From Pseudomonadota bacterium (GTDB lineage: Bacteria; Desulfobacterota; Desulfobacteria; Desulfobacterales; JBDRRP01), in NCBI GenBank assembly GCA_043825735.1, contig JBDRRP010000075.1, forward strand, positions 1 through 64,000: DNA of 64,000 nucleotides, read 5' to 3'. How positions within the stretch are numbered: the first letter of the stretch is position 1; each line of letters starts with the position of its first letter. The notes beneath the pieces are model-generated. The model saw nothing but the letters and a program-made list of their open reading frames with translations, ran no database searches and had not been told where the DNA came from. Below are positions 20,660 to 53,886 of this stretch, in pieces. The translations under genes were made by a program, and so were the position numbers.

Positions 20660-20716
20660 ATCGAAATGGATGATGGCCGTCGCACAGCCAGGCCGGTTGA
20701 TCGAAGATCAAACTTC

Positions 20717-20835
20717 GGTGAATCCGTAAAAAGGCGATTTTGAACCACAGAGACCACGGAGGCCACAGAGAATATGATGAATAATCTCTGCGCTCTCTGC
20801 GTCCTCTGTGGTGACTGCAGACTTTTTACACAGCC
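20717..20835. repeat. Composite palindromic repeat
   Basis: Outer CCGTAAAAAG / ACTTTTTAC arms enclosing an ACCACAGAG..CTCTGTGGT 9-bp-unit palindrome. Confidence 0.8.
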
Positions 20836-20864: not shown

Positions 20865-21659
20865 TCACGGATTGAATAGGATCTGTTCGGCGGTTTCCAG
20901 GGTGGCCACGGGAAACTGTTCGGCCTCGGCAATGCGCCATTCCCGCGAAGAATTGTAGCCCCAACCGGCCAGCACGCAGCGCACCCCCAACGGGGCGACC
21001 CCCTGAAGATGGTTGACCTTGTCATCGACAAACGTAATGGCTTCCAGCGGCAGCCCCGTCCGCTCGGACAAGGCCCTGAGGTGGGCGGTCTTGTGGCGCC
21101 CGGTTTCCTTATCGAGGATGCACCCGGTAGGAAAAAGATCGCCGATGCCCATGTGGTTCAATAGCCGCCGCACCGAATCCCTGTCCTTGGCGGTCACGAT
21201 GGCCAGGATTATCGAGCCGGCATGGCGCCGCAGCAGATCGACAAATTCATCGTAAGCCCGGTGAAGGGCGAGCCATGCATTCTGGTTGGTTTTTTTCAAA
21301 GCATTGCGTTCAAAGTAGAACGAGCGGTGATATCTTCTCAACCAACCGGCTTCCTGGGCTTTGAAATAGGCATAATAGCTCTCCTGATCGCCGATATCCG
21401 CCCCTTCTTCGCAGATTTTCAGGGCCACGCCAAAGTCTTCGGCGCGGTTTCCCAGTGGCTGAAGCTGGGTGAATTCCTGATATTCCGGATCTGAGAGAAA
21501 ATCGAAGGCGCCCGCCCCCCCCTTTTCGGCGATGGCCGACAGCTTGTGCCGCCACCGGGAACGCGGATGCAGGGCCGTGAAAGCGCGAAGCGCCGTGACA
21601 TACACCTCCCGACCGCTGTCGCAAATCACACCGTCGAAATCCAGCGCCAGTGCCTTCAT
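20865..21659 (-). CDS. HAD-superfamily hydrolase (phosphatase)
   Basis: Motif I DFDGV at the N-terminus, VTAK, K, FVDD motif IV, GWGY; GGAG RBS before 21659. Confidence 0.8.
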   Translation of the reverse strand: MKALALDFDGVICDSGREVYVTALRAFTALHPRSRWRHKLSAIAEKGGAGAFDFLSDPEYQEFTQLQPLGNRAEDFGVALKICEEGADIGDQESYYAYFKAQEAGWLRRYHRSFYFERNALKKTNQNAWLALHRAYDEFVDLLRRHAGSIILAIVTAKDRDSVRRLLNHMGIGDLFPTGCILDKETGRHKTAHLRALSERTGLPLEAITFVDDKVNHLQGVAPLGVRCVLAGWGYNSSREWRIAEAEQFPVATLETAEQILFNP

Positions 21660-22033
21660 GAGCTCCCCCCGGGCTGTGCTCCCGGCCTCGCTGCTGTGTG
21701 GCGGGTTATGCCATATGATGACCACCCTGAGGCTATTTTTCAAGTCGTTTCTGACGGATGGGAAAAAGGCGCCCGTGAAAAGGTGAATGGCGCTCTTTTC
21801 CCGGGCCGCGGAAAACAGGTTAGATGCGGGGGCCGGAGCCCCCGAAGACATCGCTTTTACCGGCCGGGCCCGTTGAACAACGATTCCCATCGATGCTATA
21901 GGACAGGCAGCCGGCGCGACAGTGTCGCCCCGCCACCCTCCCGCGTTTCCCGCACCCCGGGATAAGCCGGGTGTTGAATATAAAAATGCCCGGAGGTCAC
22001 ACCGTTGAACCACATACGAGCGGAGACTAGTCC

Positions 22034-23173
22034 ATGGCCATCGTCAAACAGGTAACCGGCGCCCGAAAAGGGATGAAAGACTTTATCGACTTTCCTTACA
22101 CGATCTACCGGGTAGACCCCAACTGGTGCCCTTTGCCCCGATTTGAACGCAAGCAGTTTTTCAGCCCTCAAAACCCGTCCATGGCCAACATGGAAGTCGC
22201 CTACTTCGTCGCCTACGACGGCGAGCGGCCGATCGGCCGGGTGACGGCCCACACAGATGAAGGGCACAATCGTCACTATAAGACGCGCCAGGGATTTTTC
22301 GGGTTTTACGAAGCGTTGGACGAACCCGCCGTCGCCCCGCTATTGATGCAGGCCGTGGAGCGATGGGTGCGGGAGAGGCGGATGACATCGGTCATCGGGC
22401 CCATGAATTTCACCACCAAGCACGAACTGGGGTTTCTCACCGAAGGGTTCCAGTATCCGCCGACCATACTGATGCCATATACCAAAGCGTATTATCCCAG
22501 GCAGATGGCCGATCTCGGGTACCGCGTCGAAAAAGAGCTGGTGGCCTACCGTCTGGACCGGCGCACACCCCTTCCGGAAAATCTTCCGAGAATGGTCAAC
22601 CGCCTCATGGAAAAACACGGCGGGGACATCACCATCCGGGCCATCGATATGACGCGCTTTTATGAAGACGTCGAAACCATGCGGAGGATCTACAACTCCG
22701 CCTGGGATGGCAACTGGGGGTTTATCCCCATGGAAATCGACGAGATGAACGATATGGCCAAACAGTTGAAATTCTTTGCCGAGCTGCCGTTCATCACCCT
22801 CGTTTTCAAAAAGAACCGGCCCGCCGCATTTTTGCTGCCAATGCCCGATATCAACGAGGTTTTCTTCAAAATTCCGGACGGACGCCTGTTTCCGACCGGT
22901 TTCTTGAAACTCCTGCGTCACAAGCGTTATATCCGCACCGGCAGCATCCTGCTGATGGGGGTCATGCCCGAATACCGGCTGCAGGGGCTGGAGCTGATCA
23001 TGTTCGACCGGCTCATGCGCGATGCGCTCAAACAGAACCACTACGACTATCTGGAAACGACGTGGATCCTGGCCGACAATTATTTGATGTGCCGCGGGAT
23101 GGACTATCTGGGCGCACAGTTGAACAAGCGCTACATCGTGGTAAAAAAGGAACTGTCGCCCCTGCAAGAATAG
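22034..23173 (+). CDS. YghO/bacterial ceramide synthase (bCerS)-like double-GNAT N-acyltransferase
   Basis: FIDFPY.IY..DPNW, GRV.AH, GFFGFYE, GPMNFTT..ELG, MPY...YY, YNSAW..NWGFIPM, LPDIN, LMGV.PEYR..G, WIL.DN motifs of the YghO family. Confidence 0.7.
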   Translation: MAIVKQVTGARKGMKDFIDFPYTIYRVDPNWCPLPRFERKQFFSPQNPSMANMEVAYFVAYDGERPIGRVTAHTDEGHNRHYKTRQGFFGFYEALDEPAVAPLLMQAVERWVRERRMTSVIGPMNFTTKHELGFLTEGFQYPPTILMPYTKAYYPRQMADLGYRVEKELVAYRLDRRTPLPENLPRMVNRLMEKHGGDITIRAIDMTRFYEDVETMRRIYNSAWDGNWGFIPMEIDEMNDMAKQLKFFAELPFITLVFKKNRPAAFLLPMPDINEVFFKIPDGRLFPTGFLKLLRHKRYIRTGSILLMGVMPEYRLQGLELIMFDRLMRDALKQNHYDYLETTWILADNYLMCRGMDYLGAQLNKRYIVVKKELSPLQE

Positions 23174-23265
23174 CGTTCGGCGGTCTTCCTGAAGCGGGCC
23201 TGTTCCGGGATCAGCGCCATGGCCGCAAGGTACCGCATAAAGCCGGACCCTCAGGCCCCGGACCG

Positions 23266-25506
23266 TCACGGACGGGTGACGGAGGCCTCCAACACCGTCA
23301 GGGACGGACCCGCCGACATCGGCCCGGACGCCGGCGGCGTGATCCGCATGGTGGCCCTCTCGATGAAAAGCGACAAACCGTCTGGTGGGCGGCAGTCCAC
23401 ATAGGCACCGCATTCGACGCCTTCCATATCCGTTTCCGGCGAAAACAGATAAGACAGCCGAAGCCGCTCGCCGGCGGACAACGCCACCGGCTTCCTGAAG
23501 TGCTCCCGCGTACCACGCCCGCTGGTCAGTTTGTTCTCGAGTGTGATCTCGCCCTGCTTTCCGATGAGACGCATTTCCACAGACACCGCCACCCTGGATC
23601 CGGCGGCAAGGCTCAGATACTGGCCGGCGTAGATGATCTGACGGGGAGACTTAGGTTGCAACGGCACGGTGCGTGCCGAGGTCAGCAAGTAGTCTTTCGG
23701 CACGGCCTGATCCGAATGCGCCGAACGGCTCCGCACGGCCACGGCCCGCAGGAACCGGCGCTCGGCATCGGGCATGGCTTCCCGGGTCAATCCGGTGCGA
23801 ACCGGTGCGCCGACGGTCAGCCGATAGGTCGCACAGTTCACAAACGATTCGTCACAGATGTGGTATTTATCGTCGGTGCCGAGCGCCCCCACGATGCGGC
23901 GGTAGGTATTGCCGAAAACGATCGGCCGAGGAGTGCCGTATCGTCTGAAAAGGCTTCGGCCGTTCAGGGCCGGTGCACGATCGGCCACCCCCACTGCGTC
24001 GAGAATGCTCAGCGCGATGTCGCTTTGCATGAAACGCTCGGTGACTTTCAGATGCTCGCCGGAGGGCAGGTGTGCGATAAACAGCCCGATATTGGGCCCC
24101 AGCAGGGTGTCCACCGCGCTGGCAGCAGGGCCGAGGGGACCGGCGGATTCATCCGAGGTGATGACGACCAGCGTATCGTCGAGCACCCCCCGCTGGGCCA
24201 GGGTGGAAAGAAATGTCGACAGCGCGTCATCCAGATGCCTGAACGCCGCCGCCTGTCGATCGCCGTTTTGCGGATAGGTCTCGGGCAGATAGAAGGGATG
24301 ATGGGTGCCCACATTGAGCAGCGCTAAAAACCAGGGGCGGCCGCCGGCGTTCAGATCATCGATCATGTTGACGCTCTGCTCAAAGAACGCCCTGTCGTCC
24401 ACGCCCCATTTTCCCTCGGCATAGGCACGGGAAAACCACTCTCGCCCGTGCACCGACTGGAATCCGGCGCGCGCCATGAAGACATCCTTCATCATGAAAG
24501 AGAGCGGCGCGGCCTGTAGGTAGGCGGTGCGGTAGCCGCTGCCGCTGAGAACGGCCGGCAGGCAGGCATTTTCCCCTGAGGGCTGGTAGGTCGACATCTT
24601 CGGTGTGTCGGTAATCAGGGCGGGCAGATCGCCGCACAAAATGGCGTATTCCCCACGATTGGTCTGGCGCTGCTGGGTGATGAGCCGGGGTGCGTATACG
24701 GCCATCTCGGAAAACCGTTTGAGCTTGGGCATGAGCGCTTGGCCGGCGGGCACGCCGGGGCCCCGCGGCACTGGACTCAAATACAGGGACGAGACCGACT
24801 CCAGGATGATCAGCAACACGTTCGGAGGCGGTCCCAAAGCGGCCTGGAAGACGCTGTCGCCTGACAGGTCCCTTGAGAAAACCTTCTCCACCGCGGCGGA
24901 TTCCGACGCGGTGAGCGTGGTTTCGGCCGTGACCGGCCGGTGCCGTTTTCCTGCGGCGACATGCAGGTTTGCCGCCAGGGCATGGGTGCGCTGCCACCGG
25001 TCGGCTGCATCACCGGGGTATCCGGCCATCAGAAAAAACAAAGCGGCGGCCCATGAAAGCACCTGCCAGGCAGTTCGCGGCGTCCGGGTGCACGGACGCG
25101 TCGCCGAAAACATCATGACACCGCTGAGAAAAACCAACCCGGTCAGCACGGCCGCATGGGTTACCCGCAGAAACGACCCGAAGAGGAAAGTGCGCTCCAG
25201 CAGGTAGCCGGCGTGGGTAAACAGCGGCAGAACATTCAATGCCCGTATGTGCTCGTAGACGGCGCTCTGGGCAAGACACCACAAAACGGCAGCGCTCACC
25301 GCCGCCCACCGGCTGCGCCGGCCGATGGCCACCAGCGGCAGGCTGATCACAAACGCCACCGCGGCGTCGGCCCAAAACCCCGTCAGCGACCGGGCGCTCA
25401 TCAAGACGCCCTTTTCCAGCATCAGTATCACCCGAAATACCCACGCCGGCAGCACCAGCGCGCCGACGGCAAACGGATATTGCAGGATTGATCGCCATTT
25501 TCTCAT
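23266..25506 (-). CDS. LTA synthase/sulfatase-like membrane phosphotransferase
   Basis: About five N-terminal TM helices, then LLIILES, catalytic Thr (QTNRGE), THHPF and ITSDE alkaline-phosphatase-superfamily motifs. Confidence 0.75.
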   Translation of the reverse strand: MRKWRSILQYPFAVGALVLPAWVFRVILMLEKGVLMSARSLTGFWADAAVAFVISLPLVAIGRRSRWAAVSAAVLWCLAQSAVYEHIRALNVLPLFTHAGYLLERTFLFGSFLRVTHAAVLTGLVFLSGVMMFSATRPCTRTPRTAWQVLSWAAALFFLMAGYPGDAADRWQRTHALAANLHVAAGKRHRPVTAETTLTASESAAVEKVFSRDLSGDSVFQAALGPPPNVLLIILESVSSLYLSPVPRGPGVPAGQALMPKLKRFSEMAVYAPRLITQQRQTNRGEYAILCGDLPALITDTPKMSTYQPSGENACLPAVLSGSGYRTAYLQAAPLSFMMKDVFMARAGFQSVHGREWFSRAYAEGKWGVDDRAFFEQSVNMIDDLNAGGRPWFLALLNVGTHHPFYLPETYPQNGDRQAAAFRHLDDALSTFLSTLAQRGVLDDTLVVITSDESAGPLGPAASAVDTLLGPNIGLFIAHLPSGEHLKVTERFMQSDIALSILDAVGVADRAPALNGRSLFRRYGTPRPIVFGNTYRRIVGALGTDDKYHICDESFVNCATYRLTVGAPVRTGLTREAMPDAERRFLRAVAVRSRSAHSDQAVPKDYLLTSARTVPLQPKSPRQIIYAGQYLSLAAGSRVAVSVEMRLIGKQGEITLENKLTSGRGTREHFRKPVALSAGERLRLSYLFSPETDMEGVECGAYVDCRPPDGLSLFIERATMRITPPASGPMSAGPSLTVLEASVTRP

Positions 25507-25712
25507 TGCGGTGAGCCCATCTCCTGGCGCCCTCTTTTGAAACGGCCGTAGCCGCACCTTCGCTCCCCGGCGTTGACTAACGGCGGCCAGTTGGTGTCAA
25601 ATGCCGGAAAAGGACGGATACCCGCCGCTGGCGCCATCGCCACCCCGGACGGAAGCAGTCGATACCGTTGACCCGGCCGCAGCCGCTGCGGCAGTGAAAG
25701 GAAGCGTCCGCT

Positions 25713-26471
25713 GTGCCCCGGATCCCACGAATCATTCACCAAACATGGAAAACGAATCGTGTTCCAAAGCGTTTCGCGTCATTTGTCCACGGTTGGGTGC
25801 ACCACCACCCCGGCTGGCGGCACATCCTGTGGACCGACCGTTCCAGCCGGCAATACGTTCGGGGCCGCTACCCTGCCCTCTTGCCCCTTTACGACGCCTA
25901 CGATGCAAATATCAAGCGGGTGGACATGTTCCGGTACCTGGTCATGCTCGGCATCGGCGGCGTTTACGCCGACCTCGATGTCGAGTGCCTGGCGCCGATG
26001 CAGCCGCTGCTGGATACCGGCCGCACCTGCATCCTCGGGCTGGAGCCGGAGCTGCACGCCCAACGGCTCTACGGTCGCGCCCGCCTGGTCTCCAACGCGG
26101 TGCTGGCCTCGGCGGCAGGACATCCTTTCTGGACCCACGTCATCGGCGTCATGGAATCTTGCTGCAGGGAAAAAGATGTCCTTTCGGCCACGGGCCCCAT
26201 GATGCTGACAAGCGCCGTGGATTCCTTTCCGGCGGCCGATGTCCGCCTTCTTCCCAGTGCCGTCTGGAGTCCGTTGGTGGATCTGGCCAACAGCGCCCTG
26301 AACCTGACCCCCACCGAGCGCGAGCATTTCACCGGCATGCGCCGGAGGCAGGCCTACCCGGCCGAGTCCCTGGCCGTCCACCATTGGGCGGGCACGTGGT
26401 ATTCGGGCGGATGGCCCGGCGCCTTGAACCGTCTTTGGGTCAAGGCGGTCTCACGCTTTCGCCGTCGATGA
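25713..26471 (+). CDS. GT32 glycosyltransferase (Och1/Sur1-like DxD)
   Basis: IPRIIHQTWK, RVDMFRY....GGVYADLD, GHPFW, TGP, HHWAGTW. Confidence 0.85.
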   Translation: MPRIPRIIHQTWKTNRVPKRFASFVHGWVHHHPGWRHILWTDRSSRQYVRGRYPALLPLYDAYDANIKRVDMFRYLVMLGIGGVYADLDVECLAPMQPLLDTGRTCILGLEPELHAQRLYGRARLVSNAVLASAAGHPFWTHVIGVMESCCREKDVLSATGPMMLTSAVDSFPAADVRLLPSAVWSPLVDLANSALNLTPTEREHFTGMRRRQAYPAESLAVHHWAGTWYSGGWPGALNRLWVKAVSRFRRR

Positions 26472-26546
26472 TGTTCGCTGTCGACAGACGGGCCGTCCGG
26501 TTCCCCGCCGGTGATGGTCCGGAAACCGGAAAAGAGCGATCCGGCG

Positions 26547-27245
26547 TCAGCGCAGATATCCGATGAGCGCCGCGGCGCCGGCCGCGGCGACAAACAGTCG
26601 CTTCCATGACCGCTCGGCGGCCTTGAAAACAAAGGAGTCCCAGCCCATCCACGTGTCGCCTCGCAGATGAAAGACGTAGGCTCGCTCGGCATCGTGGGAG
26701 TGGTAGTGGGCATCGTGGAAAGCGATGACCTTGCGCCGGTAGGCGGATCGGCGCACCGTCATCGTTAAATACAGCGACCCGGTCGTCAGCAGAATACGGA
26801 AATGCCGCGAAACGAGGGGGCGCTGCCACCGGTGGCTTGCCGCTGGCAGCGAGTCGACCAGCATGCGAAACAGGGGATGGCCGGGAACGCTCATCATCAG
26901 ATCGTTTGAAAAAGTGGACAGCGATGTCGGTGCCAGCACGACCGGATACTTGCGGTAGGCGTCCAGCGGGTGAATACACAGCAGGTCCAGATCACTGTAG
27001 AGCCCGCCGTAGTGATGAAGCAGCATGTAGCGCGCGGCGTCCACCCGCTGGATGTCGTCCGGATAAGACTGATACAGCGGCCACAGGTGCCGATAGCGGC
27101 GTTTCACAAACCCGGCCAGATCGGCATCGGTCCAGAACCGGTATTCCCACTGAGGATGATACGCCTGCCATGACAGCATCGAGCGTTCAAACCGTCGGGG
27201 CGGGTGCTCGTCTTTCCAGGTCTGGTGAATGATGTTCGGAATCAC
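26547..27245 (-). CDS. GT32 glycosyltransferase, Sur1/Csh1 (MIPC synthase)-like
   Basis: IPNIIHQTWK, QRVDAARY.LLHHYGGLYSDLD, SNDLMMSVPGHPLF, FHLRGDTW..WD and a C-terminal hydrophobic anchor. Confidence 0.85.
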   Translation of the reverse strand: MIPNIIHQTWKDEHPPRRFERSMLSWQAYHPQWEYRFWTDADLAGFVKRRYRHLWPLYQSYPDDIQRVDAARYMLLHHYGGLYSDLDLLCIHPLDAYRKYPVVLAPTSLSTFSNDLMMSVPGHPLFRMLVDSLPAASHRWQRPLVSRHFRILLTTGSLYLTMTVRRSAYRRKVIAFHDAHYHSHDAERAYVFHLRGDTWMGWDSFVFKAAERSWKRLFVAAAGAAALIGYLR

Positions 27246-27251
27246 GGGAAA

Positions 27252-28877
27252 TCACCGCTTTCTGACACGGCCGCCGTCCATCCAGACCAACCGGTCCGCC
27301 AGATGGAAATAACGGTCGTCATGGGTAATGACGATGAGGGTTTTACCCTCGCGCTTCATCTGCTCAAGAAACGCGCCGTAAAAATAATCCCTGAAATCGG
27401 CTTCCTGGTCGGCCGTCATTTCATCCACCACCAGAACCGGGCGATCGTCGACAAGCGCGACCAGCAGCGCCAGCCGCCGCCGCTGACCGGCGGACAGGGT
27501 TGTGGTGGACAGTTTCCCCCCCGTTATGGAAACTTTGTGCGCCAGCCCCAACTGTTGAAGCCAGCCGGCACACCGCTCCATATCGAGGGCAGAGCTGCTG
27601 TAAATCCGCTCGAAAAGGTAAAAATCGCTGAAAACGAAAGAAAAAAGACCCCGGTAGCTGTCGGCGCCGCCTGCATCAACGGGCTGACCATCCCTTAGAA
27701 CGCAGCCGCTTTGGGGTTGATAGAGGCCGGCGATGATCTTGCTCAAGGTCGTTTTCCCGCTGCCGTTTCCACCGGTAATGAAGACCACCTGCCCTTTTTC
27801 GATCTCCAGATCGATTTCCGAAACGCCGAAGGCATGCGCGCCGTCGGTTTCCAGGGGATAGCTGAAGCCGACGCCGGCCAGCACGATGCGATTGAACCGG
27901 TCAGGGTCCGCCGGCAAACGACGGTCGGCCGGCATGCCGGCCCGGGTGTTTTCAAAAGAGGCTCTTTCCCATAGTGCGCCCAAGTGTTCCAACGCCACCT
28001 TGAGAGACAGCAGCTGCAACGCACAATAAAAAAATTGGCCGCCCGGCATTATCATGTAGAGCAGCACCACCGCAATCCGGGAAACGAGCTCCGGCTGTCC
28101 GGGATATCGATGCGGCATACCGAACAGCACGAAGCCGAGAAACACAAAAAACATTCCCAGCCCCAATGAGTAGTTGAACTGGATGGCGCGGTGGGCAGCG
28201 ATACGCAGTGCCATGGTCTGCCGGAAGCCGGGGCGGAGGTGGTCGTTGAAAAACACGCCCCGCTTGCCCTGATTGAGTTTCAATTCCTTGAATCCGCCGA
28301 GGAAATCGACAATGAACCGATAGAGCCGGTCGGCGTGGGTTCTGGCTGCCGAAAGCCGCCTCTTTGCAGCCTGCTGCCGGAAGAGGTACATACCGACCCC
28401 ACCGGCAATAATGGCCAATGTGGCGAAAAAAACCTGCGGCGCCAGCCACAGCAGATAGGCCATGCACACCATGAGGGTCACCGCTCCGGATATCATTTCC
28501 ACGACATCGGGGACAAAACGGGATATGGCGGCGCAGTCATCGGTCAGTACGGTGTGGATCTGCTCGTGACCGATCCGCTCGAAGTCCTCCAGGGCGCATT
28601 CCTGCAGCCCCTCCAGAATGTCGAGCCGGGCTTTCATGGTCAGTTCTTCGACCACCTTGTTGATGCTCACCGACATGCAGAAACGAAAAACAAGATAGAG
28701 CGCCAGCAAAAGAAAAAACGACGCCGCCCGGTGAAAAGAGAAGTAGTCGCGGGTCGCAATGACCCCCGAGACCACGAGCATCATCAGGCCGCTGGCCGCG
28801 CCCGTGCACAGACTGAAGGCGGCGCACGCGAGCAGTTGTTTGCGTGATGCCAGATACAATACGCGCAGATATCTCAT
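27252..28877 (-). CDS. Fused ABC exporter of the cyclic-peptide (PvdE/SyrD/YojI) family
   Basis: Six TM helices, GFKELKLN, GGNGSGKT, FSDFYLF, LSAGQRRRLAL, DE.TADQ. Confidence 0.85.
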   Translation of the reverse strand: MRYLRVLYLASRKQLLACAAFSLCTGAASGLMMLVVSGVIATRDYFSFHRAASFFLLLALYLVFRFCMSVSINKVVEELTMKARLDILEGLQECALEDFERIGHEQIHTVLTDDCAAISRFVPDVVEMISGAVTLMVCMAYLLWLAPQVFFATLAIIAGGVGMYLFRQQAAKRRLSAARTHADRLYRFIVDFLGGFKELKLNQGKRGVFFNDHLRPGFRQTMALRIAAHRAIQFNYSLGLGMFFVFLGFVLFGMPHRYPGQPELVSRIAVVLLYMIMPGGQFFYCALQLLSLKVALEHLGALWERASFENTRAGMPADRRLPADPDRFNRIVLAGVGFSYPLETDGAHAFGVSEIDLEIEKGQVVFITGGNGSGKTTLSKIIAGLYQPQSGCVLRDGQPVDAGGADSYRGLFSFVFSDFYLFERIYSSSALDMERCAGWLQQLGLAHKVSITGGKLSTTTLSAGQRRRLALLVALVDDRPVLVVDEMTADQEADFRDYFYGAFLEQMKREGKTLIVITHDDRYFHLADRLVWMDGGRVRKR

Positions 28878-29076
28878 CGAGTCGCTTCTTTGTGATGGAT
28901 GGCCGGCTGCCCGGTCATCGGGCACACATCCCTACCACAGGTGTGATTTTAATGACAACCGGTACCCGGCCATGCGATCTCATGCCGGAAAAGCCATTAT
29001 TTTCTTGCCCTGAATTTTTGTCTTGAGTAAAAAAGAAATTTTCGGTGCTGTAAAGATTCGACCAAAAGAGGGGAAT

Positions 29077-31671: not shown

Positions 31672-31708
31672 CAAAAAGAATGTCACATTCACCACGACTG
31701 AACCGACC

Positions 31709-32452: not shown

Positions 32453-32464
32453 CCGGCGCCGCCG

Positions 32465-33460: not shown

Positions 33461-33603
33461 GGCGTTTCCCTGCCAGGCGTCCGGCGGGTTGACTTTTAAC
33501 ATTCGTCAGTGGCACAACGTGCCGGCAACGACCGGCGGCCGTCCCAACCGCAGCAAGCCATGGGCGGAGACGATTTCAGCAACCTTTCTTCTAACACATA
33601 AAC

Positions 33604-36836: not shown

Positions 36837-36869
36837 GATGTCCCCTGGCACCGCCGGTGCGGCGGTTTT

Positions 36870-38015
36870 CTAAAAAAGTTCCGCGGGATCCGCCGCCAGC
36901 ACTTTTCTAACGGCGATGAACCCGGCGATGCAGCACATAAATATCGTGAGCAAAAACACGGACAGTCCCCGCCCAGGCGTCAGAATCATGATAATCCGGG
37001 TCGTCTGCTCGATGACCGTGTACAGCACATGGCCGGCCAGCAGACCGGGCAGGTAGCCGATGACCGAGAGCAAAAGCGCTTCTTTCATCACCACCCCGAC
37101 CAGAAACCGGGTGGAAAAGCCAACGGCTTTCAGCGTGGCGAACTGCGGCATGTGATCGGTGACTTCGTTAAAAAGGATCTGATAGCAGATGATGATACCG
37201 ATGATAAAACCGACGATCAGGCCGATCCCGAGCAGGGCGCCGACGGGTGTGGTGCGCGTGGTGAAAAAAATCTCGCGGACTCTGAGCTCTTCTGGCGTCA
37301 TGATCAGGATGTCGTCGGGCAGCTGCGCCAGCACTCTTTGCCTCAATGCAGGGATATCGGTCCCTTTGGCCACTCGCAGCAATCCGTAGCTGATCTGGTC
37401 CATCACCCAGGGATCGCGCGGCGCCGCATAGGTGGTGTCACTCATGAGTACGTACCCGTTCTGGGAAAAATTGGGCCCCATCCGAACACTGCCCACCACC
37501 CGGTGTTTCAGGCCGATGATTTCCACCGACATGCCCGTGCGGACATCCCCGTAGATGGACCGTGACAGGGTGTCGAAAAGGATGGCGCCCTTTTCCTTGA
37601 GCAGGTCGGTTTCAAGGGGGCGCCCGTTGATCAGAAACGGCGCGCTGCCCACCGGAAACGCACGATACCCCACCCGCTTGCCCATGCCGCTGGCGGGCGT
37701 GATCATGCCCACCTGGCCTTCATAGACCGGGACCACCTCGCGGATTTCGGGAAAGGCCAGGGCCTGGTAGAGTCGGGCCCGGTCCATCCGCCTAAAACTG
37801 TTGATGGAACGGGTCTTTTTGTTGAGCATGACCAGGTCGGCATTGAGATGGGCGGCGATGTTGGCCTGGCTGTCGTTCAGGCCATTGAAAAAGCCGATGG
37901 CCATGAAAAGCACCAAAACGGCAAAGGCGATGGCGCAAAGAGCCAGCATACAGCGTGCCTTGTTGTGCACCAGCATGCGGAACGCGATAACTGTGCTGTA
38001 TTTCATTTTCATCAT
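36870..38015 (-). CDS. DevC-type ABC permease (FtsX/MacB-like)
   Basis: N-terminal TM, periplasmic domain, ICYQILF.EV.DH..QFATLKAVG, C-terminal ADPAELF. Confidence 0.85.
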   Translation of the reverse strand: MMKMKYSTVIAFRMLVHNKARCMLALCAIAFAVLVLFMAIGFFNGLNDSQANIAAHLNADLVMLNKKTRSINSFRRMDRARLYQALAFPEIREVVPVYEGQVGMITPASGMGKRVGYRAFPVGSAPFLINGRPLETDLLKEKGAILFDTLSRSIYGDVRTGMSVEIIGLKHRVVGSVRMGPNFSQNGYVLMSDTTYAAPRDPWVMDQISYGLLRVAKGTDIPALRQRVLAQLPDDILIMTPEELRVREIFFTTRTTPVGALLGIGLIVGFIIGIIICYQILFNEVTDHMPQFATLKAVGFSTRFLVGVVMKEALLLSVIGYLPGLLAGHVLYTVIEQTTRIIMILTPGRGLSVFLLTIFMCCIAGFIAVRKVLAADPAELF

Positions 38016-39142
38016 CAGAACAGATCGGCCGGGTCGGCCTTCTTGACTTTTCTGAGCGCCAGGAATCCGGATATCAGGCACATCATCATTGACATGGCCA
38101 GAATCAGTGCGGCCAGCGGCAGCGTCAGCAAAATGGGCAGCCGGGTCACCCGATGGATGATGTAAAACAAACCGGCGGTGATCGCCATGGCCGGCAGATA
38201 GCTCAAAACCGCGAACAGCGCCGCCTGCTGAAATCCGACGCCGTAAATGTACCCGGTGGTAAATCCCGCCGCCTTCAAGGTGGCAAATTCATTTAGGTGG
38301 TTGGCGATCTCCGTGCTGAGCACCTGAAACAGGATCACCGCGCCGACGCAGAAGGAAACGAACACGCCGGCCTGTACCATGATGCCGATGGGCATGACGG
38401 AGACGAAATTGTCCTGTTCCAGCGTGATCAGCTGACTGCGCTCGAACACGACGATTTCATGTGAAAGCGTCGATCTCACGGCAGTCGCCACCACCGCCGG
38501 GTCAGCCCCCGGCGATACCTTGATCATGCCGAAACTGATCTCCCGCGGGTCCTGGCGCGTGAGCGCGTAAAAAGTCTGGTTGTTGACGATCACCGCGCCG
38601 TCGGCATAAAACCCCATGCCCAGGGAAAAAGGCGCCTCCGCCCTCACATCCAATCGGTTGATCCTTGCTTCGCGCGGCACCGAAAGACGGCCGTAGGCGG
38701 GGTTTGAAAGCGTGTCGATCATCACGGCGTAGGTCCGCTCCAAACTCGGCAACCCGTCACGGATCGCCGCGTTGCGGATGAACGCCGGGTCGAGATCGAT
38801 GCCGATGATCATCACGGAAGATTCAACCTCGGTGTCCGGATCTTCCCACTCGCCGATGCTGATATTGAGCGGGGCCACCTTGTCAACCCCATCCACGACG
38901 TTGGCTTGAATCAGTTGGACCTTATCGAAACGGCCGGCCTCGTTCATGTACTCGTAATCGTAGAACACCATCAGCAGGTCAAAATCCAAATCCTCGTAGA
39001 CCAGCGTGGATGCCCTTTTGACGGTGTCCAGAAAGCCCACCTGCATAAACATCAACAGGATCGAGAACGATATGCCGGCAACGGCGGCCAGCGATCGCTT
39101 CTTGTTGTGCACCGTATTGTGCCAGGAAAGAAAGATCCTCAT
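38015..39142 (-). CDS. DevC-type ABC permease (FtsX/MacB-like), second paralog
   Basis: LMFMQVGF, LFQVLSTEI..HL.EFATLKA.G, C-terminal ADPADLF. Confidence 0.85.
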   Translation of the reverse strand: MRIFLSWHNTVHNKKRSLAAVAGISFSILLMFMQVGFLDTVKRASTLVYEDLDFDLLMVFYDYEYMNEAGRFDKVQLIQANVVDGVDKVAPLNISIGEWEDPDTEVESSVMIIGIDLDPAFIRNAAIRDGLPSLERTYAVMIDTLSNPAYGRLSVPREARINRLDVRAEAPFSLGMGFYADGAVIVNNQTFYALTRQDPREISFGMIKVSPGADPAVVATAVRSTLSHEIVVFERSQLITLEQDNFVSVMPIGIMVQAGVFVSFCVGAVILFQVLSTEIANHLNEFATLKAAGFTTGYIYGVGFQQAALFAVLSYLPAMAITAGLFYIIHRVTRLPILLTLPLAALILAMSMMMCLISGFLALRKVKKADPADLF

Positions 39143-39211
39143 CGTCCAACCGCCGTTTCTTCCCGCTGCATGCCCTCACCTCTTCGCCGCGAACCCCTTC
39201 AGGCCGCGGCG

Positions 39212-40210
39212 TCATTTCCCAATGTCGGCCAGGCTCACTTCTACTTCCAGATTGATCAGCCGGGCGGCGGTATCCTGTATTTCCAGGGCGATGGTCACCT
39301 CCGCCACCTTGGATCGCCCCTGGATGATCCGGCTGATCCCCGTCACGGTGCCTTTCAGCGCGCCCGGCATCGATTTGCTCGTTATGGTCGCCGCCATCCC
39401 TTTGCGCACGCGCAACACATCCCCCTGGAACACCTCTGCGATAACGACCATTTTGGACAGATCGGCGATCTGTATGATGGGCGATCCACCGGTTTTTTCA
39501 CCCGCGTGCTGAAGGATGTCGAGAATCGTCCCGGCAAAGGGCGCAGAAAGCGTCGACTGGACCTGCTTCTGCTCGGCAGCGTCAAGCTGCTGGCGCGTCT
39601 GGGCCAGTTTCACGTCCCGGTCCAGCCGAAGGCGCTCCAGTTCAAGCGTGGCCAGGGCCAGGTCGCTTTTACGGTTGACCTCGAGTTGGGCCAGTTCCTT
39701 TTGTGCGATCTCCATGTTGATGCGGGCGCTGTTCACCTCGTATTCGCGAAGCTCTTTCTGCTGCGCGGAGTAAGACTCCGAGCCGGCCTCCAGCAGCCGC
39801 GCCAGGGAGCTGTCGGTGAATGCATGGGTGGCTGTAACCGCCTTCAGCTTGGCCTGCTGAAGGGCAATGGCGCTGGCAGCGGCGGCGTCGATCTTCTGGA
39901 CGCGCAGGGTCTGGATGTCGATGGCCTTGGCGCTGGCCACATCGGCCTCGCGAAGATTCTGCTGCGCGATGGCCACTTCCAGGTCCAGCATCTGCTTGGA
40001 GGCGAACGCCACCAGGGGCGCCCCGCGCACCACCTGTTCATCCACATCGACAAGAATCCGCTCGATGGTGACACCCGGCGGGCCGGCGAGATGGACGATG
40101 CCCCCGGCCGGCGCGATCCGGCCCAACGCCCCGATATTCTCCCCGGCGTGCGCCCATGGGAGCAATGTCAAAATAAAACCGGTTACCCATATCCAACTGC
40201 GTTTTTTCAT
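39212..40210 (-). CDS. DevB-type membrane fusion (periplasmic adaptor) protein
   Basis: ALGRIAP start, long coiled coil, APFAGTIL, AEVFQGD, L.NLEVEV end. Confidence 0.85.
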   Translation of the reverse strand: MKKRSWIWVTGFILTLLPWAHAGENIGALGRIAPAGGIVHLAGPPGVTIERILVDVDEQVVRGAPLVAFASKQMLDLEVAIAQQNLREADVASAKAIDIQTLRVQKIDAAAASAIALQQAKLKAVTATHAFTDSSLARLLEAGSESYSAQQKELREYEVNSARINMEIAQKELAQLEVNRKSDLALATLELERLRLDRDVKLAQTRQQLDAAEQKQVQSTLSAPFAGTILDILQHAGEKTGGSPIIQIADLSKMVVIAEVFQGDVLRVRKGMAATITSKSMPGALKGTVTGISRIIQGRSKVAEVTIALEIQDTAARLINLEVEVSLADIGK

Positions 40211-40257
40211 CGTGGGTCACCCCTGTGTTTAACGGTCCAAATTACTGAAGGCGCCAT

Positions 40258-41910
40258 TCACGGAAATGCTTTTGTGATGCGGTCGGGATCAAAAGAAAAC
40301 TCACCGTTGTTTTCTTCGAGCAGCGCGCCGGTGGCAAACAGCAGTTGGGTTCTTGCCACGGCGTACTTGCGGACGGCTTCGATAACGGTGAGTCGCGATT
40401 TGATGAAACGATCCTCGATGTCTATGAGTGCGTTCAGACTCGATTCGCCAGCATCGTATTTTTTCTTCTCAAAGGCAACAGCCTTCTGGTAGGCCTTTGC
40501 CGACTGAACCGCCAGTGCATACTCGCTTCGGGCGCTGTTCTCCGCATTGACGGCAAGCATGACATCGGCAGCAATCTGATTGAGCAACAACGCCGCCGAA
40601 AGCTTTGACTGACGGACTACTGCGCGCTGGGACACCAGCTGCCCTCGCGCCGCATCATTGTAAATGGGAAGCTCCAGGGTCACTCCGGCATAACCATTGG
40701 GTCCCTTCAAACGATTATTGAAAGATCGGTAGTAGCGGCTGTAGTCATCGTTTTCAGCGATACCGGCGTAGCCGACCTGGATGGAAAAATCCATTCGGGG
40801 CTTGGTGTTGTTTTGTGCCTTGTCAAAGAGGATCGTCTGGGTATCGATGCTGGTAAGGGCGGCCAGGTAATCCTGGCGCTTGGCCTTGGCCCGCACGATC
40901 AGCGCCTCCGGGGCCGGTGCCGACGCCGCGTCGCCTGTGGGCGCAATCGGAAATTCTCCGCTGGGCGCCGGTGGGACGACCATCTGATCGGGACCGTAGC
41001 CCATGGTCAAGGCCAGCTCCTGGCGCCGCTGCCGGAATGCCAGCTCCCCCTTGGTAAGATCGGCCCGGTTGGCATACAGGTTGGCCCGGGCCTGGTTCAT
41101 GAAGGCCGGTTCCACGAGTCCTGCATCGACCATCCGACTCACATGGGTCAGCAGAAAGTCGGCCCGCTCGAACGAGTCCTTGGCCAGCGCATAACTTTGC
41201 TGCGCTGCCAGGCAATTCCAGAACGCCGACACCGTGCCGTAGACCTGTTGGGAGATATTGTGCGCCGAGATCTGCACCGTGGCGCGCCGGCTGGATTCCG
41301 CCGCCAGGTAATCGGCCCCCGTGGCCTTCTCCCCAAGCCCCCGAAGCATCGGGATCACCATCGTCACATAAACATCTGAGCGGCTCGCAGGGTCCTTGTG
41401 GTCATAGCTGTTTTCGTAATCCACCACGGCGGCGGACGGGGAAACGGTGATGCCGTTCATAAACTGCCGCATCACCCCGGCGGAGATCGTGGTATGCCGC
41501 TCATCGATCTCTTCGGCGATAGCCCCGGTGTTTTTAGGAAAATTGGCCCCCGGCAGGGTGTTCATAAAATCAATGATGGCATTGTTGTCGGCCTGAGCCT
41601 TGCTTTGGGCCCGCTGTGTGGACTCGCTCACCGGCAGGGTCTCGGTCCCGTACCGGGCGGCTGAAAAAAACAACCAGTCGAACTGCCCGCGGGCCGTCTG
41701 GACAACGCCGTCCGTTACGACGACCGCCTCTTTTTCGATCTGCACGCCGGGGTTTGCGGACAGGGTGCTGTAAACCGCCTCGCCAAGCGTCACCAGGGTA
41801 TCCGTCGCCGGTGCATTCGCCGCCCTGCAATGAACGGCCGGTCCTGCGACAAGGAGGATTCCCAAAACGGCGGCGACCCAAATATGATTACCCCGTGCCT
41901 TCCCATTCAT
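40258..41910 (-). CDS. TolC-family outer membrane efflux protein
   Basis: Signal peptide; two OEP-like repeats (LELPIYN; KKYDAG..SLNAL). Confidence 0.85.
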   Translation of the reverse strand: MNGKARGNHIWVAAVLGILLVAGPAVHCRAANAPATDTLVTLGEAVYSTLSANPGVQIEKEAVVVTDGVVQTARGQFDWLFFSAARYGTETLPVSESTQRAQSKAQADNNAIIDFMNTLPGANFPKNTGAIAEEIDERHTTISAGVMRQFMNGITVSPSAAVVDYENSYDHKDPASRSDVYVTMVIPMLRGLGEKATGADYLAAESSRRATVQISAHNISQQVYGTVSAFWNCLAAQQSYALAKDSFERADFLLTHVSRMVDAGLVEPAFMNQARANLYANRADLTKGELAFRQRRQELALTMGYGPDQMVVPPAPSGEFPIAPTGDAASAPAPEALIVRAKAKRQDYLAALTSIDTQTILFDKAQNNTKPRMDFSIQVGYAGIAENDDYSRYYRSFNNRLKGPNGYAGVTLELPIYNDAARGQLVSQRAVVRQSKLSAALLLNQIAADVMLAVNAENSARSEYALAVQSAKAYQKAVAFEKKKYDAGESSLNALIDIEDRFIKSRLTVIEAVRKYAVARTQLLFATGALLEENNGEFSFDPDRITKAFP

Positions 41911-41944
41911 ATGACACCCCTCCCCTCTGCTCTCAGGAGCCTTC

Positions 41945-42679
41945 TTACGCAGGGTCTACGCAATTGAGATCCTTTCCGGTGAAAAACACGGCATGGCGAT
42001 GTTTCAAATAGTCGATCACTTCCCGGACACACACCAAGGCCGCCGGTCCGGTGCGGAAACGGCAATCCAGGCGCAGCTTTTCCCGTCTCAGATCAACGAA
42101 CTCCCATGGATGGACAAACAGCACCAGCGGGCTGGAAAGACTGGACAGCCAGAAAAAACGGATCCACCGCGGCAGACGCAGCACCGAAGAGGTCACCGAT
42201 GTGGCAACGCACGTCAGGGGCAAAGGTGCACGATTCGCCCGAAAGCTGCGTTTGTAGACCGCCTGTGACGCATCGACCCGGAAACCGTTTTCCGCCAGCA
42301 AATCGTAATAGTCGGGAGGAAACCGCAGATACGGGGCCCTGAAAACCGTCACCGGAGCGAACGCCCTGAGAGCGGCCGCCGCTTTTCGGATGTCCGCTTC
42401 TGCCTCGGCCCGCCCCATCGCAGCGTAGCTCCCATGCAAATCCCCGTGGCACCCCAGTTCATGACCGGCCGCCACGATGTCGCGCACCTGGCTGGGAAAG
42501 CGCCGGGCCACGTCGCCCGTGACAAAAAACGTGGCCGGAATCTGCGCGGCGTCCAGCACTGCAAGCAACCGGTGGATCCCCCGCACGACACCCCGGTATC
42601 CTGAAAGATATGGCGGGCAGTCCGGCTCCACGTCCACGGTGAACCATACTTTCCGGCGCCCGTCACCCACTGCCGTCAC
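41945..42679 (-). CDS. Polysaccharide deacetylase (NodB/CE4) family protein
   Basis: TVDVE, ATFFVTG, HELGCHG..H, FRAPY, FVHPWE. Confidence 0.85.
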   Translation of the reverse strand: MTAVGDGRRKVWFTVDVEPDCPPYLSGYRGVVRGIHRLLAVLDAAQIPATFFVTGDVARRFPSQVRDIVAAGHELGCHGDLHGSYAAMGRAEAEADIRKAAAALRAFAPVTVFRAPYLRFPPDYYDLLAENGFRVDASQAVYKRSFRANRAPLPLTCVATSVTSSVLRLPRWIRFFWLSSLSSPLVLFVHPWEFVDLRREKLRLDCRFRTGPAALVCVREVIDYLKHRHAVFFTGKDLNCVDPA

Positions 42680-42682
42680 CCG

Positions 42683-43951
42683 TTACCGTTTCGCATTTCG
42701 AAAGACCAGGCACACGTTGCTCCCGCCAAAGCCACTGCTGTTGCTCACGGCGACCTCCAGCGGTCGGCGCAGCGTTTCCGTGGGCAGATTCAACCTTTCG
42801 CAGCAAGGATCCGGTTTGGCCAGATGGGCAGCGCCCGGAATGATTCCCGCCTTGAGCGACAGGGCGCAAAATGCCGCCTCCATCGCACCGGCCATGGACA
42901 GGGCATGACCGGTGAGGGCCTTGGTGCTGCTAACGGCAGGAAAGGCGCCCGCGGCGGAAAATACGGTATCGATGGCCAGCGCTTCCGCCTTGTCGCCGAT
43001 CTGGGTGGAGGTGGCATGGGCGTTGATATAATCGACCTGGCCGGCACGGATGCCGGCGGCACCTAGCGCGCGTTTCATGGCCGTTGCCAGCCCGGAGCCC
43101 TCGGGATGGGGTATGGCCACGTGATAGCCGTCGGAGGCCTGTCCCCAACCGGCGATATCCGCATAGATGGCGGCGTTTCGCGCCAGAGCCTCGCATGTCC
43201 GCTCCAAAACGAGCGCCACCGCACCGCCGGTGCCCACAAACCCATCCCGCCAGCGGTCAAAAGGCCGGGAGGCCGTATCCGGATCCGGATTGCCGGAAAG
43301 GGTCCGCATCGCCCAAAACGGCAGCAAGTTGTCGGCTGTCATTTCCTCAGCACCGACCACCAGCATTCTCCGGTGCCTTCCAAGCATGATTTCGTCACAG
43401 GCATATCCGATGGCGTGGCTGCTGGAAGCGCAGGCCGAGACAAAACCACAGTTGGCGCCACGGATACCTAACATGGCCCCGAGATTGAAGTTCAGTGTAC
43501 CGCAAACTGATTTCACGACCCCCAGCGGGTCCCCCCGGAGCCCGCGGTTTTCATGCATTTCATTGAGATTGGCACGGAGCAGAGAAGGTGACCCGCCCGA
43601 TGCACAAAACAACCCCGTATCGTCGCCACTGATCCGTGCCGGGTCCAATCGGGCATCGTCGATTGCCTGACGAAGGGCGCAGGCGGCGTAAAGAACGTGC
43701 GGTGAAAAAGCGCGCAACGCCAGTTTGGGTATGTCATAGCCGGCGGGATAGACCCACTTGTAAAAGAATTCGGAGCGGGTATCGAATCCTTTGATGGTGC
43801 CGGCCACCGATAGCGGGTTTTCCAGAAAGGCGACTTTTTCAAAGCCGTGCCGCAGGTGGATGAGGCTATCGAGCACTGAGGCCTTGTCATTGCCGATACT
43901 GGTGACAAAGCCGAGACCTGTGATGGACACCCCGCTGATCTGATCGGCCAT
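42683..43951 (-). CDS. Beta-ketoacyl-ACP synthase (FabF/FabB-like)
   Basis: Catalytic Cys-His-His triad: SACASS, NAHATST, TGHAL; NSSGFGGSN. Confidence 0.9.
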   Translation of the reverse strand: MADQISGVSITGLGFVTSIGNDKASVLDSLIHLRHGFEKVAFLENPLSVAGTIKGFDTRSEFFYKWVYPAGYDIPKLALRAFSPHVLYAACALRQAIDDARLDPARISGDDTGLFCASGGSPSLLRANLNEMHENRGLRGDPLGVVKSVCGTLNFNLGAMLGIRGANCGFVSACASSSHAIGYACDEIMLGRHRRMLVVGAEEMTADNLLPFWAMRTLSGNPDPDTASRPFDRWRDGFVGTGGAVALVLERTCEALARNAAIYADIAGWGQASDGYHVAIPHPEGSGLATAMKRALGAAGIRAGQVDYINAHATSTQIGDKAEALAIDTVFSAAGAFPAVSSTKALTGHALSMAGAMEAAFCALSLKAGIIPGAAHLAKPDPCCERLNLPTETLRRPLEVAVSNSSGFGGSNVCLVFRNAKR

Positions 43952-43970
43952 AAATCTCCTAGCGCCGGAT

Positions 43971-44345
43971 TCAGGCCTCCAGATTGAGTTTCTGGCGCAT
44001 GAATGCTTTGACTTCAGCGACGGTCGTGAGCGTCATCACTTCGTCGTCGGCAATGATGATGCCAAAAATGTCCTCCGAAAGAAACACCAGCTCGGTCATC
44101 GCGATGGAATCGAACCCGAGGTCATTGATAAGGTGGGCCGAATCGGGGATGGCGCCCGCTTCTCCGCCTGCCGGCATGAAAAACCGGATTGCGCCGATGA
44201 TCGCACGATCCAGCATCGCAGGGTCGCCGTTGCTGCGAAACGTGTAGTAAGCCGATTCCGCCTCATCGGAAAGGCCTTCGAGCTTTTCTCTCAACCGATC
44301 GGTGATCTCCGGAAATTTTGAAGCAATGCAGCCACTGCCTTCCAT
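43971..44345 (-). CDS. Acyl carrier protein with N-terminal extension
   Basis: DLGFDSIAM phosphopantetheine site; 124 aa, longer than a standard ACP. Confidence 0.8.
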   Translation of the reverse strand: MEGSGCIASKFPEITDRLREKLEGLSDEAESAYYTFRSNGDPAMLDRAIIGAIRFFMPAGGEAGAIPDSAHLINDLGFDSIAMTELVFLSEDIFGIIIADDEVMTLTTVAEVKAFMRQKLNLEA

Positions 44346-44454
44346 TATCAATCCTCTCAAGCAGATCATTGAAACCGCTACCCGCACTATAGCGGAATTA
44401 TCGATGCGCCACAACACGCGCGTGCTTGCGTGCGGCGCCCGAGGCGTATCGCCG

Positions 44455-51458: not shown

Positions 51459-51474
51459 AAGCTCACGCTCCTTA

Positions 51475-51616: not shown

Positions 51617-51622
51617 TCCTTA

Positions 51623-53811: not shown

Positions 53812-53886
53812 GTTTCCTCCCGTATTCCGATGATGTCCGCTGTGCCAGCACCCCCTGCACTGCACTGCCAGGGGGCGCCGAACGCC

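Follow-up and report, generated by a model that had tools for sequence, protein, structure and literature searches.

The 64,000-nucleotide window analysed here, positions 1 to 64,000 of contig C75 in the 6.80-Mb assembly G000 (160 contigs) of a Desulfobacterales bacterium, carries an inserted island of 20 genes whose probable function is to make and export an inositol lipid decorated with sugars, similar to the glycosylphosphatidylinositol (GPI) and glycosyl inositol phosphoryl ceramide (GIPC) lipids of eukaryotes. The assembly is rated by markers as 100% complete and 3.69% contaminated, and a groundwater metagenome is the best read holder for the window. The presence of dsrAB and lpxC marks the source organism as a sulfate reducer that has kept lipid A synthesis. 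An initial annotation had described about 20 contiguous genes at this locus as a candidate cluster for an inositol-phosphate-headed, GIPC-like lipid on ceramide or diacylglycerol, and every gene type that it listed was found intact, at the coordinates given, among 21 open reading frames (ORFs) spanning 20865..44417. The features are as follows.

22034..44345, mixed strands: inserted island of 20 genes, with an empty site in genomes G062 and G126.
20865..21659, minus strand: HAD hydrolase (PF00702), native and outside the island, 71% identical in G062.
22034..23173, plus strand: YghO/bCerS-family tandem-GNAT N-acyltransferase of the Nitrospinaceae cluster-type clade, assigned from homologues and GNAT matches in the PDB.
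23266..25557, minus strand: LtaS/OpgB-like membrane phospho-substituent transferase with a Thr-type sulfatase fold (PF00884; PDB LtaS/LtaP).
25713..26471, plus strand: GT32 glycosyltransferase a, DLD motif (PF04488, E 1.6e-15).
26547..27245, minus strand: GT32 glycosyltransferase b, DLD motif (PF04488, E 3.1e-14).
27252..28925, minus strand: PvdE/YojI-type ABC exporter, possible lipid flippase (TIGR01194, 328.9 against a cut-off of 286.2).
29077..30186, plus strand: myo-inositol-phosphate synthase, MIPS (PF01658; TIGR03450, E 4.7e-129, under cut-off).
30183..30833, plus strand: CDP-alcohol transferase resembling phosphatidylinositol-phosphate synthase, PIPS (PF01066; NF040950/NF045883 best, under cut-off).
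30778..31710, minus strand: GT2-like (GT-A fold) glycosyltransferase with an N-terminal membrane anchor (Atlas features 0.98, TM 0.82).
31709..32452, plus strand: GT32 glycosyltransferase c, DMD motif, of a subfamily tied to inositol-lipid clusters (PF04488; only PDB match Och1, E 3e-6).
32465..33460, minus strand: PAP2 phosphotransferase resembling Aur1, the inositol phosphorylceramide (IPC) synthase (PF14378, PAP2_3; NF052609, 143 against a cut-off of 480).
33604..34803, plus strand: GT4 glycosyltransferase, candidate N-acetylglucosamine (GlcNAc) transferase to phosphatidylinositol (PI); profile nearest BshA (3e-38) and PimA (1.5e-36).
34723..35745, minus strand: YbhN/AglD2-type flippase-like membrane protein (PF03706, E 1.3e-31).
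35742..41910, minus strand: double-DevC exporter comprising TolC, DevB, DevC, DevC and DevA with a cNMP-binding domain (TIGR02982, TIGR02971, TIGR01185, PF02321, PF00027).
41945..42679, minus strand: CE4/NodB-type N-deacetylase, D-x-E-x-D and H-x3-H (PF01522; PDB CE4 matches).
42683..43951, minus strand: FabB/F-like ketosynthase (KS) with a Cys-His-His triad (PF00109/PF02801; motifs).
43971..44345, minus strand: acyl carrier protein (ACP), DS motif, the last gene at the right island edge (PF00550).

The extent of the unit was settled by comparison with relatives. In the same-genus genome G062 the VWA, HAD and TatD genes are contiguous, with ~230 bases from VWA to HAD, and in the same-family genome G126 VWA and HAD are likewise adjacent. 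HAD and a portion of the sequence upstream of it thus belong to the native backbone, and the 20 genes were inserted between HAD and VWA. This comparison rules out the HAD protein as the pathway phosphatase proposed in the initial annotation, a function for which the clusters of relatives use PgpA. With nine changes of strand among its 20 genes, the island is a cluster and not a single operon; its only co-directional block is formed by the nine minus-strand genes from ACP to the flippase-like gene. No integrase and no terminal repeats were found at the island borders, where the only repeats are those among the paralogous GT32 genes, and borders of a mobile element were rejected on this ground. 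All 20 frames are intact with their catalytic motifs kept, and the codon adaptation of the island genes (0.67-0.79) falls within the range of the flanking genes (0.66-0.84).

A chimeric contig is countered by a single 24,469-base contig of sequencing run X1 (depth 27.9), which matches 26500-45253 with zero differing letters and bridges the ACP-VWA junction into the right flank; run X1 is possibly the source sample and hence not independent of the assembly. Parts of the island are also matched by short low-depth pieces from two other studies. Among 200 other genomes of the order, an Aur1-like gene and the deacetylase subfamily each occur in none, DevC in two and YghO in 32. The island was acquired laterally, and the simplest history is that a donor, with its serine palmitoyltransferase (Spt) gene located elsewhere, passed on a block.

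The inositol-phosphate head proposed in the initial annotation is borne out by three enzymes. MIPS and the PIPS-like enzyme were identified by homology, both under the NCBIfam equivalog cut-offs; the catalytic motif of the latter is complete, and its best PDB matches are phosphatidylinositol-phosphate synthases (E 3e-25, against 4e-11 for the DIPPS type). A profile of the Aur1-like protein retrieved yeast AUR1 as its sole PDB match (E 4e-26), in an alignment that takes in the PSLH and HHY-x-x-D motifs, and residues H260, H297, H298 and D302 are invariant in 40 sequences, the nearest homologue among the scored candidates being 55% identical. Its NF052609 score, given above, makes it a member of the family and not an equivalog. 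Hydropathy, which is rough and missed some helices, places the histidines opposite a basic short loop and tail, in agreement with the non-cytoplasmic face on which Aur1 acts. A PgpA-type phosphatase is absent from the island, and the sole PgpA of the assembly lies on contig C62; in other genomes PgpA is common beside the head-group genes. A second, distant MIPS-like gene stands beside a sugar-isomerase-like gene at 39548-41965 of contig C40, unrelated to the island.

Extension by several sugars and subsequent export, also foreseen in the initial annotation, are upheld by five glycosyltransferases and two export systems. All GT32 enzymes carry DxD motifs and have Och1 as the only structure match, and the GT2-like ORF, which matches nothing in Pfam or NCBIfam, has GT2-like clusters as its Atlas neighbours (score 0.98, TM 0.82). 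The deacetylase shows 45 invariant columns in 13 homologues and has the CE4/NodB fold, not that of PIG-L (LmbE). It shares a fetched locus with GT4 in 13 of the 17 aligned GT4 loci, and so steady an N-deacetylase partner favours GlcNAc as the sugar that GT4 would transfer, as in gpgSDF. GT4, deacetylase and flippase form a recurring amino-sugar module that had been overlooked in the initial annotation. No clear membrane spans were seen in GT4, the GT32 enzymes or the deacetylase, the latter two types being soluble by hydropathy. In the sulfatase-fold protein the N-terminal part holds membrane helices and the nucleophile position is occupied by a Thr; LtaS and LtaP are its PDB matches (E 1e-7 to 4e-6), and OpgB and LtaS its best named matches, below cut-off.

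The GT4 and flippase genes lie tail-to-tail with an 81-base overlap (window 33604-35745), a convergent layout kept in Nitrospinaceae and metagenome loci (L040, L215, L245), and alternating strands are common in these clusters. A search for GT4-deacetylase fusions among 150 representatives gave one weak partial match only, and a plasmid search gave no deacetylase match and ten distant GT32 matches. The GT-C-like proteins present in Nitrospinaceae clusters had no match in G000. The island holds no transamidase candidate, in an analysis that included no search aimed at protein transfer.

Within the export pump, DevA (328.9 against 295.8) and DevB (144.7 against 129) exceed their cut-offs, the two DevC proteins (256.6 and 251.6 against 290.35) fall under theirs, and the outer-membrane component is an OEP/TolC protein (PF02321). 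The separate ABC exporter is of the cyclic-peptide type, over the TIGR01194 cut-off, and a full-length homologue with 30% identity adjoins a double-DevC pump in locus L308. The comparison of pumps covered four double-DevC Opitutales loci, 15 of 25 single-DevC Opitutales loci and one single-DevC locus from the phylum of the window: island-type genes stood beside the pump in 4/4 double-DevC loci and in 0/16 single-DevC loci. A search of 300 genomes of the phylum for DevC yielded one single-DevC match in an unrelated context. Within the order, DevC was seen only in G080 and G199, both of which carry Spt-like, KS and YghO genes. Proteins with matches to GINT1_N, the N-terminal domain of a plant glucosamine inositolphosphorylceramide transferase, and Stealth proteins adjoin Opitutales double-DevC pumps (L306 2895-3776; L308 16397-17980).

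The genes of the island recur, shuffled, in Nitrospinaceae, in Opitutales, in two other members of the order and on many metagenome contigs; kin are not independent in any of the co-occurrence counts. Around 80 Aur1 relatives in GTDB genomes, PIPS-like genes were present in 29 loci, YghO in 12, the full double-DevC/TolC pump in 6 and GT32 in none. Around 78 metagenome relatives of GT32c, the neighbours were GT2-like genes (25 loci), deacetylase (18), GT4 (16), MIPS (12), KS (12), PIPS (11), YghO (5), oxoamine synthase (4) and Aur1 (3). The initial annotation had named a lack of co-occurrence in other genomes as refuting its proposal; on this point the outcome is in its favour. GT32 and Aur1 lay within 10 kb of each other in 0/80 Aur1 loci and 3/78 GT32 loci. 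As many of the 78 loci are short, near-identical ones were merged and those of at least 8 kb kept, which left 30; here GT32c relatives accompanied MIPS/PIPS/Aur1 in 11 of 20 loci at 182 bits or more and in none of 10 at 143 bits or less, a split chosen after a natural score gap had been seen.

The clusters differ by lineage. Nitrospinaceae loci combine deacetylase, flippase, GT4, Aur1, GT-C-like, GT2 and PIPS genes, often with a reducing polyketide synthase (PKS), and YghO. Opitutaceae-type loci carry MIPS, PIPS, a KDSR-like short-chain dehydrogenase/reductase (SDR), a KS-ACP-dehydratase-oxoamine-synthase fusion of 1324-1438 residues, YghO, Aur1 and the pump, and the fusion locus L088 4876-8850, from the complete genome of Verrucomicrobia bacterium IMCC26134, is a complete predicted inositol-sphingolipid locus, as are L047, L073 and L078. 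In the order of the window, G199 runs Spt-like, KS, ACP, YghO, TolC, DevB, DevC, DevC, DevA and then a CerR-like gene, a gene set that G080 has split over two contigs.

Beyond these, the head-group set (MIPS/PIPS/PgpA, GT4, CE4 deacetylase, GT32 and GT2-like genes) appears, by gene neighbourhood, beside three anchor modules and two exporter types. The sphingoid module consists of an oxoamine synthase and an SDR, sometimes with YghO (L215, L245, L246, L253). The acyl module is found in L223, L230, L240 and L243, where MIPS, PIPS, PgpA, GT4, deacetylase, GT32c and GT2-like genes adjoin a KS and a PlsC-type acyltransferase, several of them with ACP or MaoC-like genes, and where no Aur1, YghO or oxoamine synthase was found in ~20 kb. 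The ether-lipid-type module places an FAD-linked oxidase and a fatty-acyl reductase beside parts of the set (L210, L238, L305). The exporter is LptF/G-like or double-DevC. Since some loci carry the head-group genes without ceramide genes, the head-group enzymes need no adjacent ceramide genes. As an anchor native to G000, an ether lipid was considered and set aside: the assembly has one 31% match to an alkyl-dihydroxyacetone-phosphate-synthase-like protein (C159) and a weak reductase match.

The ceramide part of the initial annotation fared differently. None of the 30 PF00155 matches in G000 is an alpha-oxoamine synthase by type or motif, hence none is Spt; the BioF model TIGR00858 gave a best E of 3.3e-7 over part of its length only, and a profile from three cluster-linked oxoamine synthase domains gave a best E of 0.014. 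The absence rests on four methods, and five comparison genomes used as positive controls returned two to three strong matches each. The same-genus genome G062 likewise lacks the family. Neither a second YghO elsewhere in G000 nor a CerR/KDSR-type reductase in the island was found; the best CerR-like matches in the assembly have 26-28% identity, and the best SDR, at 39%, lies in an unrelated context on C45. The genome search suggested in the initial annotation, which had named a missing spt together with missing inositol or alkali-stable lipids as what would refute it, thus found no Spt and no clear CerR, and its specific claim of a ceramide or mannosyl inositol phosphorylceramide (MIPC) lipid is not supported for this assembly.

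The YghO-like ORF, for which Pfam and NCBIfam gave no match, is 47-53% identical to 11 Nitrospinota proteins that are cluster copies and 32% identical to a Nitrospina copy located between spt and cerR. In a quick tree with a long window branch it is sister to the Nitrospina cluster copy (SH-aLRT 100). The clade of this type occurs in 11 of 120 Nitrospinota genomes, nine of them with Aur1 nearby. In five genomes (G202, G203, G690, G692, G694) the neighbouring spt and cerR genes have lost the yghO that would separate them, and no YghO other than the cluster copy was found; because 19/19 canonical loci keep yghO beside spt, the cluster copy reads as the ceramide synthase of those Nitrospinaceae. 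This replacement pattern weakened another idea, prompted by L205, where deacetylase, GT4 and YghO genes stand together and 19.6 kb contain no oxoamine synthase, that YghO N-acylates a glucosamine (GlcN) head. The ketosynthase of the island is 55% identical to the KS adjoining MIPS-PIPS-YghO-Aur1 in L084. Across Nitrospinota, YghO is present in 74 of 120 genomes and the spt-yghO-cerR arrangement is widespread (L338-L356, L134, L377-L381), which predicts ceramides in marine nitrite oxidisers.

The reading preferred here, which we consider about as probable as all others together, is a glyco-inositol lipid with a glycerolipid anchor and a glucosamine core that would be assembled on the cytoplasmic membrane face, then flipped, phospho-decorated and exported; its substrates, sugars and step order are drawn from homology and gene neighbourhood. 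MIPS would supply inositol-phosphate, the PIPS-like enzyme would join it to CDP-diacylglycerol, and the host PgpA on contig C62 could strip off the phosphate and leave PI. This PI would then receive GlcNAc from GT4 on the cytoplasmic face and be deacetylated by the CE4 enzyme to GlcN-PI, which three GT32 enzymes and one GT2-like enzyme may extend with further sugars. The YbhN-like protein, the PvdE-like ABC exporter or both would flip the lipid, the LtaS-like enzyme would attach a phospho-substituent on the outer face, and the double-DevC/DevB/TolC pump would move the product outward, with KS and ACP providing a dedicated acyl chain. The ceramide arm of the donor pathway would be represented by the bCerS homologue and Aur1, which could move the head to ceramide where a sphingoid base exists. 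In the absence of Spt from the assembly, a glycerolipid is the most likely anchor here.

Several observations weigh against this reading. YghO pairs with an Spt-like gene in 10 of 12 Aur1+YghO loci (oxoamine synthase within 10 kb), an oxoamine synthase is present in 27/32 YghO-positive genomes of the order versus 90/168 of the others, and an spt-like gene lies elsewhere in 8 of 9 Nitrospinaceae genomes with the cluster-type YghO; intact YghO and Aur1 would be odd if substrate-less. The assembly consists of 160 contigs, fragmented by a repeat of 143 copies, and the clusters lacking ceramide genes are 20-kb views, not genomes. With a preset cut of 190 bits, the association of GT32c with inositol-lipid genes falls to 9/17 versus 2/13 (Fisher p 0.057, loci non-independent). 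The profile of GT4 is as near the mannosyltransferase PimA as the GlcNAc transferase BshA; 9 of 17 members of its large family match PF08288 (PIGA) weakly (E up to 0.05, best 9.5e-7) and the window protein does not match, so that PI stays a candidate acceptor.

The strongest competitor, which we regard as doubtful, is the same head group on ceramide, with spt and cerR unassembled or the sphingoid base salvaged from neighbours, YghO N-acylating it with a chain from KS/ACP, and Aur1 transferring the (glyco)inositol-phosphate from diacylglycerol to ceramide on the outer face. The cluster-type clade of the window YghO, which looks like a working ceramide synthase with spt elsewhere, fits this proposal, as do the unbroken run from Spt-like to DevA in G199 and the five genomes of the order with YghO and no oxoamine synthase, in all of which the contig carrying YghO is short or ends close to it. 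It is opposed by the absence of Spt and of a second YghO from a genome rated 100% complete, by CerR-like matches of 26-28% at best, by the same lack of oxoamine synthase in G062 and by run X1, in which the sequence passes without a break from ACP to VWA; the analysis turned up no salvage route. The fungal-type order put forward in the initial annotation, in which Aur1 makes IPC and the GT32 enzymes mannosylate it like Sur1/Csh1, can draw on the Aur1 homology, on GT32c adjoining an Aur1 gene in L229 and L250, and on automatic JGI labels that call some GT32c homologues 'inositol phosphorylceramide mannosyltransferase catalytic subunit'. Most labelled homologues are, however, called OCH1-like, GT32 is near Aur1 in no Aur1 locus and is kept in clusters whose examined stretch shows neither Aur1 nor YghO nor Spt, Spt is missing, and hydropathy suggests that Aur1 and the soluble GT32 enzymes probably work on opposite membrane faces; this order is the least probable of the readings considered.

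It is also unlikely that the genes are independent passengers, with MIPS and PIPS making plain PI and the GT4-deacetylase-flippase trio making GlcN-phosphatidylglycerol (GlcN-PG) like gpgSDF, or with GT4 as a PimA-like mannosyltransferase. By protein type the trio does match gpgSDF as described in PMC12713373, PimA is the best single-sequence PDB match of GT4, and one representative (P0390, by eye) has a flippase-like segment ahead of its GT4 domain; yet GT4 reaches only 63.5 bits on the GpgS model NF053787 (cut-off 480) and so is not of that family, the deacetylase is CE4/PF01522 where GpgD is listed as COG3233, and many loci have the trio next to MIPS/PIPS/PgpA. If the island were a decapitated or decaying acquisition yielding little or nothing, the missing first step and the lack of mobility genes would be explained, and among the variants listed from low-depth contigs those in GT4 are mostly non-synonymous. 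Against decay stand 20/20 intact frames with catalytic motifs, host-like codon use and, weakly given the low depth, 18 synonymous changes among the 36 listed variants in five island genes versus the 25% expected, so that this outcome is judged quite improbable, more so than the passengers.

Compared with known systems, the island seems to work like a blend of the Bacteroides, ceramide, gpgSDF and fungal systems with early GPI synthesis, and on the features tested it falls outside the ceramide, MIPC, gpgSDF and GPI systems. In fungi Aur1 forms IPC and Sur1/Csh1 lead to MIPC, and plants synthesize GIPC; the island shares the Aur1 fold, the catalytic histidines and GT32-family enzymes, whereas no ceramide source was found in G000 and the bacterial GT32 is not tied to Aur1. 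The eukaryotic GPI core is made by PIG-A, PIG-L, GT-C mannosyltransferases and ethanolamine phosphate transferases. The proposed GT4 step, deacetylation, flipping and sulfatase-fold phosphotransfer resemble it in their working, the Nitrospinaceae clusters also contain GT-C-like genes and GT2 genes that resemble polyprenol-phosphate-sugar synthases, and the GlcN-PI chemistry of the proposed product is shared with GPI, GlcN chemistry being also that of Pseudomonas GlcN-PG; in contrast, the deacetylase is CE4 and not LmbE/PIG-L, the window has no GT-C and there is no sign of protein anchoring. The DevBCA-TolC system of Anabaena exports glycolipids. The island has the same DevA, DevB, DevC-like and TolC subunits and differs in its two DevC paralogues, the cNMP domain on DevA and its sphingolipid and inositol glycolipid neighbours in place of the heterocyst PKS, a neighbourhood from which the substrate is read.

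The MIPS/PIPS/PgpA/Aur1 inositol lipid pathway of Bacteroides is established in PMC9246714 and PMC8791184, the former calling inositol lipids rare in bacteria. According to these, BT_1522-1526 of B. thetaiotaomicron groups MIPS, PIP synthase and an Aur1-like PI-dihydroceramide synthase, as the island does, with a lysylphosphatidylglycerol-synthase-type gene nearby there too; the island lacks PgpA, has a host without Spt, adds five glycosyltransferases, the deacetylase, the LtaS-like enzyme, the bCerS homologue, KS/ACP and two exporters, and has an Aur1 homologue scoring 143 against 480. The Spt-bCerS-CerR ceramide pathway shares with the island the YghO/bCerS homologue, and Spt-like genes occur in island relatives, unlike G000, where Spt and CerR were not found; PMC11334938 reports Desulfobacterota with Spt-like genes, spt often being unlinked from bCerS and cerR. 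The gpgSDF genes of Pseudomonas aeruginosa make GlcN-PG (PMC12713373) and share the trio of GT4, N-deacetylase and YbhN/AglD2 flippase, whereas the island GT4 is far below the GpgS cut-off, its deacetylase is of another family and its trio sits with inositol-lipid genes. In the literature searched, which covered few subscription papers and no supplements, neither the wider cluster family nor an occurrence of DevBCA next to sphingolipid genes was found described.

Elsewhere in the assembly, a ~125-base dispersed repeat at window 20701-20835 (also 46768-46874) can pair into a long hairpin (-43 kcal/mol, not compared with shuffled sequence) and has 143 genomic copies of at least 90 bases; 12 of 159 matches lie near contig ends, and weaker matches occur in some genomes of the order. 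A 122-codon ORF between TatD and HAD (20291-20659), with no family match and no G062 counterpart, is probably spurious or a small insertion. A run of FecR, TPR/SLH, TPR-amidase and CHAT-TPR genes occupies 50697-59741. Annotation by eye places two large type I PKS genes and a FabH-like gene on C71 (88081-107131), and a separate cluster with several ketosynthases and radical-SAM-like genes on C27 (45000-64300).

The island belongs to a recurring family of bacterial inositol-glycolipid clusters that is apparently undescribed. A wider proposal can be put forward only tentatively: several phyla may make GPI/GIPC-like glucosamine-inositol glycolipids through a modular, mobile gene set with interchangeable ceramide, acyl and ether anchors and exporters, the double-DevC/cNMP-DevA/TolC pump being a dedicated exporter, and this sulfate reducer may operate its ceramide arm in the absence of Spt, either drawing on salvaged sphingoid bases or placing the glyco-inositol head on another lipid alcohol. 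Glycosylated inositol sphingolipids are treated as markers of eukaryotes, GIPC being given as a fungal marker in PMC11278827. With Spt missing, the present organism serves poorly as a model for the ceramide arm, yet it is of interest if that arm still works, and the complete genome IMCC26134 carries the full sphingoid version. The gene set would offer bacterial stand-ins for GPI and GIPC enzymes and a candidate second route of sphingolipid export, and its recurrence in nitrite oxidisers, Opitutales, sulfate reducers and soil and water metagenomes predicts an unlooked-for class of lipids in environmental lipidomes.

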